Positions 57,985-58,973 of a DNA stretch of 64,000 nucleotides are shown here, in pieces. Positions within the stretch are counted from its first letter, which is position 1; each line of letters begins with the position of its first letter. The notes under the pieces were generated by a model. That model did not search any database. It saw only the letters and a list, made by a program, of their open reading frames with translations, and had not been told where the DNA came from. Both the position numbers and the translations under genes were made by a program. Source of the DNA: Crocinitomix sp. (GTDB lineage: Bacteria; Bacteroidota; Bacteroidia; Flavobacteriales_D; Crocinitomicaceae); NCBI GenBank assembly GCA_013138735.1, contig WTCE01000107.1, forward strand, positions 1,771 to 65,770, read 5' to 3'.

Positions 57985-58182
57985 GAACTAAGTTAACCAT
58001 AGCTTTTAGAAGCACTCGTCCCTAATTCCATAATTATTACTCGCAATTATTATAAATAACAAACCAGCTATTATTCGATTAAGCGCTTGTACGAAGTCAA
58101 TCTCGTATGGATTCAAAACAATACAAGCACGATAAATTCGGTGTTTCTGAATCGAATATTGCGCTATTTTGGAACGCCCGTG

Positions 58183-58221
58183 AAATAAAAGAGGGAAATA
58201 TCCTTTCGAATAAATCCCTCT
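58183..58221 (-). terminator. Intrinsic terminator directly after the Cys-rich small ORF
   Basis: Minus strand AGAGGGA-tt-TATTC-GAAA-GGATA-tt-TCCCTCT-TTTATTT. Confidence 0.8.
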
Positions 58222-58228
58222 CGTGTTT

Positions 58229-58312
58229 TTAACAACAGCTATTGGTTGTTTCACACGTACAAGTGCAATTATTGTTTTCATCACAGGTACATGTACAGTT
58301 ACAATTTTTCAT
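58229..58312 (-). CDS. 27-aa Cys-rich metallothionein-like peptide MKNCNCTCTCDENNNCTCTCETTNSCC (not in ORF track)
   Basis: Manual translation; 9 Cys; A-rich leader; own promoter and terminator. Confidence 0.8.
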   Translation of the reverse strand: MKNCNCTCTCDENNNCTCTCETTNSCC

Positions 58313-58348
58313 CTTTTAATTTATTAAGTGATACATTCTTTTGTCACT

Positions 58349-58381
58349 TATACAAACGCAGTACTTTAAAAAAGACGCAAA
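58349..58381 (-). promoter_or_regulatory. ECF promoter copy upstream of the Cys-rich peptide: TTTGCGTC-N15-CGTT
   Basis: Same boxes and spacing as the copy upstream of the sigma gene. Confidence 0.75.
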
Positions 58382-58396
58382 CAAAATAATCTTAGG

Positions 58397-58930
58397 TTAA
58401 CAATCACAGTCTTTTTCATCTGCATCCAGTACATTCCCATAAGTGTCTGTTTGGATGGCACAACACGCAACAAATAAGTTTTTCAATTTTTCCTTTGCTC
58501 GTTGCGACCGTGATTTAACGGCTGAATAGCCTAAGTTTAAACTAGCGGCATATTCTTTTTGACTCATTGAGCCAAACGCTGTTTTATTGAGTAGGTCTTG
58601 ATCCTTTTCAGACAGTTCTTTTACGAATGAAGTCAAACATTTGCTTAAATCCTGAGTGGATTCAGTTGATTCTTCTGGAAATTTTTCTTCGATCGTTTCT
58701 TGATAAACAACCCATTTCTTTTTTCGATAAGAATCAATGATTGTATTGCGTGTGATGCGATAAATCCAGCTAGCCAAATTGGTACCTTCCGTTAATCCTT
58801 TTAGGTTCATATGAATCTTAATGAACACTTCTTGTAAAAGGTCCTCGGCCAATTCATGATCGTTTATTCGGGACTTTATAAACCCAAACAATTCTCCTTT
58901 AAAATCATTCCAAACATGTTCTGTTGTCAT
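58397..58930 (-). CDS. sigZ: SigZ-family ECF sigma factor with a Cys-rich C-terminal tail
   Basis: AEDLLQEVFIK...SWIYRITRNTIIDSYRK; SQKEYA...YSAVKSRSQRAKEKLK..FVACC...YGN...CDC. Confidence 0.85.
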   Translation of the reverse strand: MTTEHVWNDFKGELFGFIKSRINDHELAEDLLQEVFIKIHMNLKGLTEGTNLASWIYRITRNTIIDSYRKKKWVVYQETIEEKFPEESTESTQDLSKCLTSFVKELSEKDQDLLNKTAFGSMSQKEYAASLNLGYSAVKSRSQRAKEKLKNLFVACCAIQTDTYGNVLDADEKDCDC

Positions 58931-58940
58931 TGTTTTCTTT

Positions 58941-58973
58941 TATTAGACGTACTATCTTTAAAAAGACGCAAAA
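58941..58973 (-). promoter_or_regulatory. ECF autoregulatory promoter TTTGCGTC-N15-CGTC upstream of sigZ
   Basis: Minus strand TTTTGCGTCTTTTTAAAGATAGTACGTCTAATA. Confidence 0.75.

Follow-up and report, generated by a model that had tools for sequence, protein, structure and literature searches.

A 27-codon cysteine-rich gene paired with a SigZ-type sigma factor in Crocinitomix and its relatives: a candidate metallothionein-like effector

Can a reading frame of 27 codons, reported by no gene caller and lying next to the gene of an ECF sigma factor, encode a working peptide, and what would such a peptide do? The question is raised by a window of 64,000 nucleotides from Crocinitomix sp. (by window we mean the whole stretch of DNA analysed), in which a first-pass annotation had pointed to an unannotated, ultra-small metallothionein-like peptide with its own promoter and terminator. 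The peptide gene lies 84 nt from sigZ, on its downstream side. Table 1 gathers the features of this locus.

Table 1. Features of the sigZ-peptide locus in the 64-kb Crocinitomix window
Feature	Position	Strand	Description or basis
sigZ, 177-aa ECF sigma factor, SigZ/ECF238 type	58397..58930	minus	SigZ models, Pfam domains
Peptide gene, 27 codons, encoding MKNCNCTCTCDENNNCTCTCETTNSCC (9 Cys)	58229..58312	minus	ATG start, TAA stop, translation
SigZ-type promoter before sigZ, TGCGTCTTTTTAAAGATAGTACGTC	58946..58970	minus	TGCGTC (-35), 15-nt spacer, CGTC (-10)
Second SigZ-type promoter, before the peptide gene, TGCGTCTTTTTTAAAGTACTGCGTT	58355..58379	minus	TGCGTC, 15 nt, CGTT
Intrinsic terminator	58183..58222	minus	8-bp G+C-rich outer stem and 5-bp inner stem, then UUUUAUUU
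Inverted repeat AAGTGA-N12-TCACTT, predicted 5′ end of the peptide mRNA	58326..58349	minus	Invariant in five Crocinitomix loci
Overlapping 92-aa open reading frame	58006..58284	minus	Frame different from that of the peptide gene

The translation of the small frame is exactly the one first proposed. Nine of its 27 residues are cysteines (33%), which form five CxC motifs and a single, terminal CC; aromatic residues and His are absent and Met1 is the only hydrophobic residue. Such a Cys content is an outlier in the window: among 362 M-started frames of 20-60 aa, the peptide frame included, the 361 others contain at most five cysteines, and a frame with nine was reached in one of 100 Markov-1 simulated windows. 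The start codon stands in an A-rich, unpaired context with A at -3, a position occupied by A in 5/5 species. This context fits translation initiation in Bacteroidetes, which does without Shine-Dalgarno sequences (PMC6847099). The longer frame overlapping the gene runs through the terminator into sequence unconserved between species and has no family match, so that the label ‘spurious’ given to it earlier is a fair one.

The argument for a genuine gene comes from its relatives. SigZ orthologues were searched for in 41 genomes, the window's own and 40 related ones. Nine of the latter carry a full-length orthologue, giving ten loci with that of the window, spread over three further genera of the family and two other families. 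A Cys-rich mini-ORF of 26-49 aa with 8-14 Cys adjoins sigZ at every one of these ten loci, against 0/20 loci around other ECF sigma genes of the same genomes (Fisher P = 3e-8, calculated by hand). Persistence of the Cys pattern beside homologous sigma factors, the test set beforehand, was thus seen in 10/10 related genomes and, in addition, in six metagenome loci. In four other Crocinitomix species, whose sigma factors are 77-84% identical to that of the window, the peptide is identical at 27 of 27 positions. The five coding sequences nevertheless differ at eight sites with nine alleles, all of them third-position and synonymous; with 16% of possible single changes being synonymous, this pattern would have a probability of 7.9e-8 if changes were random. 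Nucleotide turnover is complete in other genera and families, yet the Cys-rich reading frame is kept, as in MNNQNQCKCNCNCNCCNGGNCSCEGNCNC and MNNCKCINCECKKCNCGNCLENQCPCTKCECSKCDCC. From the identical peptide, the exclusively synonymous changes and a frame that persists despite nucleotide turnover, we conclude that, as judged by comparative sequence analysis, the gene is translated and that strong purifying selection acts on its protein product. The first-pass view of a real protein-coding gene missed by annotation is therefore well founded.

Two members of the genus display local peculiarities. In L005 (G010:C6, 1501-2034), the sigZ orthologue is interrupted by TAG at codon 73 and TAA at codon 142. 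Its frame is otherwise well conserved, with no frameshift, and the adjacent peptide gene, promoter and terminator are intact. A broken sigZ next to an intact peptide gene is odd if SigZ were the sole activator of the peptide; the stops could reflect a recent pseudogene, an assembly error or expression of the peptide by another route as well. In L002 (G002:C1, about 2035-2165), an insert of ~130 nt, absent in the other four species, separates the sigZ stop from the peptide promoter and may be a small mobile element.

What kind of peptide is encoded? Its relatives abound in N, T, S, G, D, E and K and contain hardly any aromatic, His or hydrophobic residue. Eleven distinct peptides, amounting to 385 residues, contain 27-38% Cys and 4-8 CxC motifs each, with one Tyr and one His in all. 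Between genera, length (26-49 aa) and sequence drift and composition alone is retained; the number of cysteines (8-14) indicates no fixed stoichiometry. Metallothioneins are recognized by a size below ~10 kDa, a high Cys content in the form of CxC, CC or CxxC, and few or no aromatic and His residues, besides their metal-thiolate clusters and their induction by the metal. The peptide, of 2.9 kDa, displays the three properties of size and composition and the metallothionein-like composition noticed at the outset stands up well. This resemblance is one of composition, since no sequence similarity to any metallothionein family was found. With E values up to 10, the peptide and five relatives matched no Pfam family, Metallothio_Pro/SmtA/BmtA (PF02069) included. 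The peptide had no match in NCBIfam, and its best PDB profile hit (E 1.2) is attributable to chance. When 5.8 billion protein clusters were searched by word index with an alignment of six peptides, all seven candidates retrieved failed to score. Nor did 1.84 billion representative proteins, searched exhaustively with HMMER, yield a match at E <= 0.001, the profile being one of 33 positions, low in complexity and of limited power. The peptide thus belongs to no recognized family, in agreement with the first reading, and given the limited power of so short a profile this absence means ‘not annotated’ rather than ‘unique’. It is partly explained by gene callers, which ignore such short ORFs.

Comparison with known metallothioneins helps to place the peptide. 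Its 27 residues are half the length of SmtA/BmtA and MymT (~53-56 aa). Fungal copper metallothioneins of 25-26 aa exist: those of family 8, in Neurospora crassa and Agaricus bisporus, have seven Cys and resemble the peptide in size, in their CxC-rich spacing among N, S and G and in the absence of aromatic residues. Consequently, the qualification ‘ultra-small’ is justified for a bacterial protein but does not hold among metallothioneins in general. Unlike the peptide, the family-8 proteins are eukaryotic and differently regulated, and they show no detectable homology to it. With SmtA/BmtA (under the SmtB repressor, in cyanobacteria and Pseudomonas) and MymT (under RicR, in Mycobacterium tuberculosis), the peptide would share the nature of a small cytoplasmic Cys-rich chelator and a sense-and-sequester logic, which we propose here and in which the sensor of a metal turns on the gene of its chelator. 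It differs from them by the lack of any sequence relationship and by having neither His nor aromatic residues. Moreover, their regulators are repressors of the ArsR/SmtB or CsoR type, whereas the regulator here would be an alternative sigma factor acting positively. The peptides would thus represent a new sequence family of the metal-induced thionein type, placed under an alternative sigma factor and not a repressor. MymT itself has been named as a RicR-regulated copper metallothionein (PMC10141476).

The sigma factor carries the Pfam domains Sigma70_r2 and r4_2. Its best matches are the SigZ models NF007215 (3.7e-54, 183.5 bits for a cutoff of 212) and TIGR02959 (1.9e-49, 167.8 bits for a cutoff of 168.65), both scores being below the curated cutoffs. 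It probably belongs to the same ECF group as CorE, CorE2 (both formerly ECF44) and Bacillus subtilis SigZ: ECF238 unites the SigZ and CorE groups, its sigma factors have no anti-sigma factor, and B. subtilis SigZ has no known function (PMC7826278). In Myxococcus xanthus, CorE (Cu) and CorE2 (Cd/Zn) are activated directly by metals through a Cys-rich C-terminal tail, which serves as sensor, and a linker CxC; they have no anti-sigma factor, are partly autoregulated and have metal-detoxification targets next to the sigma gene (PMC7826278; PMC4937300; PMC6851896). The CxC, located in the linker between sigma-2 and sigma-4.2, is essential in both (PMC4937300).

The sigma factor of the window echoes this architecture in part. 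It has a short Cys-bearing C-terminal extension (CC...CDC) and no anti-sigma gene, the peptide being its sole conserved neighbour. Its cysteines are found in the linker (Cys98), at Cys156-Cys157 and in a C-terminal C-D-C (C-terminus ...FVACCAIQTDTYGNVLDADEKDCDC), and Cys98, Cys156, Cys157 and Cys177 are invariant in eight orthologues. Unlike CorE and CorE2, which need the linker CxC, this clade has a single conserved linker cysteine, Cys98 in an S-K-C-L context, with CC at that place only in L008 and L010. CorE promoters display the usual AAC -35 element, whereas the promoters here have TGCGTC. The absence of both the linker CxC and the AAC element makes the window sigma factor, on sequence criteria, SigZ-like and not CorE-like, and its sensing mechanism may differ from that of CorE and CorE2.

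The promoters connect the two genes. The pattern TGCGTC-N14-17-CGTY matches exactly twice in the 64-kb window (0.38 expected), once before sigZ, ending 15 nt ahead of its ATG, and once before the peptide gene, ending 42 nt ahead of its ATG. As the first-pass annotation had it, an ECF-type promoter precedes the peptide gene, and it is a twin of the sigZ promoter. Paired copies, before sigZ and before the Cys-peptide ORF, recur across genera at 11 loci (L001-L007, L009 and the metagenome loci L041, L042 and L063), in the form TGCGTC-N15/16-CGTY, and this repetition supports the earlier claim that the peptide gene is wired to a SigZ-type sigma factor. Where the peptide gene lies upstream of sigZ, as in L008 and L115, a single motif copy with a variant -10 is placed ahead of the peptide gene; in L115 and L010, sigZ comes after a hairpin. 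Judged by the motif positions, an ECF sigma factor that regulates its own gene and a target gene would show just this twin layout.

Behind the peptide gene, the terminator hairpin (GAGAGGGA...TCCCTC, then the T-tract) has a dG of -20.4 kcal/mol and a z of -3.12, and none of 200 shuffles folds as well. In L001-L005, both the hairpin and its T-tract are kept amid diverging flanks. The terminator starts 6 nt past the stop codon, or 8 nt, the distance first given, if the stem is counted from GAGGGA. No terminator-like structure was found between sigZ and the peptide gene. For this reason, sigZ transcripts probably read through the peptide gene, with the hairpin ending both transcripts, and the peptide is probably made from the sigZ transcript as well as from its own promoter. 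The ‘own transcription unit’ of the first-pass annotation thus has its promoter and its terminator but is not fully independent, nothing of the terminator kind separating it from sigZ. The inverted repeat, which falls where the peptide mRNA is predicted to begin, could serve a second regulator as operator or stabilise the 5′ end as a stem. Its fold is weak (-5 kcal/mol, z -1.8) and it is not conserved beyond the genus; the idea of a conserved 5′-UTR hairpin as a regulatory element was dropped on these two grounds.

Which ligand would such a pair handle? No arsenic or metal gene was found near the pair in the window, and the indications come from more distant loci. A metagenome scan with the sigma factor alignment recovered 80 SigZ-like loci (32-53% identity), many of which have a TGCGTC...CGTC motif after sigZ, over a G+C range of 0.30 to 0.69. 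At ~44 of the 80, the neighbour is arsM, an ArsP_1 permease gene or a DUF2703 gene, and in most downstream cases among these the same promoter motif precedes the neighbour. In 20 loci the arsenite methyltransferase gene comes immediately after sigZ, and in a further 10 immediately before it (arsM calls with NF008823, 326 and 365 bits for a cutoff of 263). A permease of the ArsP_1 family (PF03773) is encoded beside sigZ in 11, and DUF2703/‘DF family (seleno)protein’ in 4-5. The Cys-rich mini-ORF occupies this place in 6/80, all on low-G+C contigs. On the sigma factor tree, the peptide-linked factors cluster, with five changes for a mean of 12.4 after shuffling and 0/500 shuffles as low, a clustering which is understated, since two rows scored ‘none’ in this test actually carry the peptide. 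They sit among low-G+C arsM-linked relatives.

No Cys-ORF was found within 2.5 kb of the genes for the SigZ-like sigma factors of Shewanella and Marinilabilia (34% identity). With this absence and the presence of the peptide in just six of the 80 metagenome loci, a universal SigZ-peptide association was dropped, and the peptide is, according to the loci compared, specific to a low-G+C subclade of Bacteroidota. Homologous sigma factors are also found on plasmids, in 1,375 records of which 1,049 are from Klebsiella. One enterobacterial record was examined, that of a Citrobacter freundii plasmid (L122, CP056908.1, 4959-7720); there, the gene of a SigZ-like factor (~32% identical) lies directly before arsD-arsA, and a variant of the promoter motif, GCGCATC-N...-CGTT, follows the sigma gene. 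The sigma factor copy of a Hymenobacter plasmid (42% identity) is located 2 kb from arsC and the gene of an ACR3 arsenite pump. The presence of arsM, an ArsP-type permease or arsD-arsA in the slot beside sigZ suggests arsenite or organoarsenicals at least as much as the classical metals, this context being drawn from other sigma lineages (32-45% identity) and not from the present clade.

Taken with the composition of the peptide and the nature of the regulator, these observations lead us to favour, as reasonably probable, the following explanation: the ORF is translated into a metallothionein-like thiol sponge that works in the cytoplasm and serves the neighbouring SigZ-type (ECF238) sigma factor as its dedicated effector. 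SigZ, having no anti-sigma partner, would itself be the sensor of a thiophilic ligand, the conserved linker Cys and the C-terminal CC...CxC tail serving for detection in the manner of CorE and CorE2. Once active, it would read TGCGTC-N15-CGTY before its own gene, resulting in positive autoregulation, and the second, near-identical promoter, which would turn on the 27-codon gene. The peptide, with nine thiols in 27 residues, would then chelate the ligand, the likeliest ones being As(III), organoarsenicals or one of the soft metals (Cd, Cu(I), Zn or Hg, for instance). With less free ligand, SigZ would return to the off state, closing a two-gene sense-and-sequester circuit with negative feedback.

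A sponge for arsenic-like or other thiol-seeking toxic metals thus appears the most likely role of the peptide, because it combines a slot otherwise used by detoxification effectors, a metallothionein composition and a regulator group whose studied members sense thiophilic metals through cysteines. Arsenite or an organoarsenical would be favoured by the gene context in other lineages, whereas Cd, Zn or Cu would be favoured, by analogy, by the precedent of CorE and CorE2 and by the CxC motifs. The known targets of CorE and CorE2 are pumps and oxidases, whereas the target proposed here is a Cys-rich peptide. Chelation by thiol-rich peptides has its counterparts: it is how As(III) and Cd are detoxified by phytochelatins and by metallothioneins that bind As(III) (PMC9917255), and this is the role that the arsenic genes at related SigZ loci suggest for the peptide. 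Phytochelatins are synthesized enzymatically from glutathione, without the ribosome, whereas the peptide is gene-encoded. Against the sponge explanation, we count the resemblance to metallothioneins in composition only, the variable number of cysteines, the lack of an arsenic or metal gene nearby, the origin of the arsenic context in other sigma lineages, the single linker Cys, the -35 element unlike that of CorE promoters and the stops in the sigZ of L005.

Alternatively, the peptide could be a regulatory partner of SigZ, acting as a miniature anti-sigma factor, or else loading or stripping the Cys tail of the sigma factor as a metal or redox donor or acceptor. We regard this as unlikely, although the behaviour of the pair is partly in its favour. 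The two genes remain strictly adjacent across genera while their order flips and the other neighbours change; neither has another known partner, and the sigma factors of ECF238 work without anti-sigma factors. On the other hand, 74 of the 80 metagenome SigZ-like loci lack the peptide, and enzymes or transporters, that is effectors, stand in the same position. Furthermore, the free drift of length and sequence between genera, with composition kept, suits a chelator better than a specific interface. It is chiefly the absence of the peptide from most SigZ-like loci and this conservation of composition alone that render the partner reading less likely, and the intact peptide gene next to the disrupted sigZ of L005 also speaks against it.

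The detoxification genes found in the slot bear as well on a redox role, in which the peptide would be a sacrificial thiol buffer against oxidants, electrophiles or disulfide stress, and SigZ a redox sensor. A peptide with nine thiols could indeed scavenge electrophiles, thioredoxin-like DUF2703 genes fill the slot in some loci, and Cys pairs of sigma/anti-sigma systems often sense oxidation (PMC7826278). However, the slot is most often filled by genes specific to arsenic (arsM, ArsP_1, arsD-arsA), not by those of peroxidases or reductases, and the characterized relatives CorE and CorE2 respond to metals. Such a redox function seems to us quite improbable.

The immediate neighbourhood is informative for the two next proposals, both disfavoured by the lack of any conserved neighbour other than sigZ. 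A small Cys-rich ORF could be a RiPP precursor, many of which are unannotated, or a secreted Cys-rich natural product. However, beyond the genus only sigZ and the peptide gene are common to the loci, and no modifying enzyme, protease or transporter is conserved beside them. The peptide is not organised into leader and core, and no segment of it is hydrophobic or signal-like. In the window itself, the pair is surrounded by genes for a T9SS-sorted secreted protein, a WG-repeat protein, a PolB-like exonuclease and unknown proteins, none of them related to RiPP maturation. The RiPP precursor was rejected on this neighbourhood, as already anticipated from the absence of a modifying enzyme nearby, and we hold it for very improbable.

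A short ORF rich in one amino acid, followed 6 nt past its stop by a hairpin and a T-tract, also recalls the leader of a transcription attenuator, in which Cys codons and the hairpin would govern downstream genes according to the supply of Cys-tRNA. The ORF and hairpin do precede sigZ in L008, L010 and L115. Yet the gene after the peptide is usually convergent, and in most loci (L006, L007, L009, L031/L032, L041) it is convergent or unrelated, leaving nothing downstream to control. In addition, no alternative antiterminator pairing is evident, and purifying selection bears on the whole amino-acid sequence and not on the Cys codons alone. The attenuator leader was likewise rejected on gene neighbourhood and is hardly credible. 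Finally, a chance ORF, untranslated within a non-coding RNA or spacer, would agree with the very short length, the absence of an SD sequence and the silence of all gene callers, but its likelihood is negligible in view of the synonymous-only differences (P ~8e-8) and of a Cys-rich frame kept across families despite complete nucleotide turnover, the missing SD sequence being uninformative in Bacteroidota, which do not use it.

Coming back to the sponge explanation, it can be extended to a broader proposal, which we put forward tentatively and consider possible more than probable. SigZ-type sigma factors would each act alone in sensing arsenite or organoarsenicals and other thiophilic metalloids, the mini-ORFs would encode the first ribosomally made arsenite-chelating peptides of bacteria, and the pair would form the smallest known self-limiting sense-and-sequester circuit. 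If true, this circuit would consist of one sigma factor, two copies of one promoter and an effector of 27 residues, and it would have been overlooked across Bacteroidota because gene callers skip the effector. In the literature, we found no description of a Cys-rich peptide beside SigZ/CorE-type sigma factors, of an ECF sigma factor controlling arsM or of a bacterial gene-encoded arsenite-binding peptide. The pair would add a very small metallothionein-like family to the bacterial ones, in Bacteroidota, a phylum with none described. It would also give the SigZ branch of ECF238, which has no assigned function so far, a concrete output and a promoter. A module of two genes is compact and could be rebuilt, in a laboratory strain, as a biosensor-plus-chelator for metals or arsenic. 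This case also illustrates that a strongly selected gene can be missing from billions of predicted proteins because it is 27 codons long.

Several observations concern other thiol-rich products at related loci. A cultured strain, Hymenobacter sp. YIM 151858-1, has on its plasmid (L121, 6094-6174) a short ORF ending in ...MNNEPDDCCDGTCCGGNTSGCC, which may represent a Cys-peptide partner that was displaced. This ORF is flanked on one side by an FRG-domain gene, located downstream of that for the SigZ-like sigma factor, and on the other by arsC/ACR3. In L095 (2635-2832), a 65-aa peptide with five CC doublets is encoded behind the same promoter motif, and in L078 (2801-4202) several CC-rich ORFs follow sigZ. 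Thiol-rich products of different designs can apparently fill the SigZ target slot. DUF2703/‘DF family (seleno)protein’ genes, whose products have Cys-rich tails (...CCG), are repeatedly found behind SigZ-type promoters (L086, 625-1161; L099, L112, L108 and L071), which hints at a role of DUF2703 in the handling of arsenic or soft metals.
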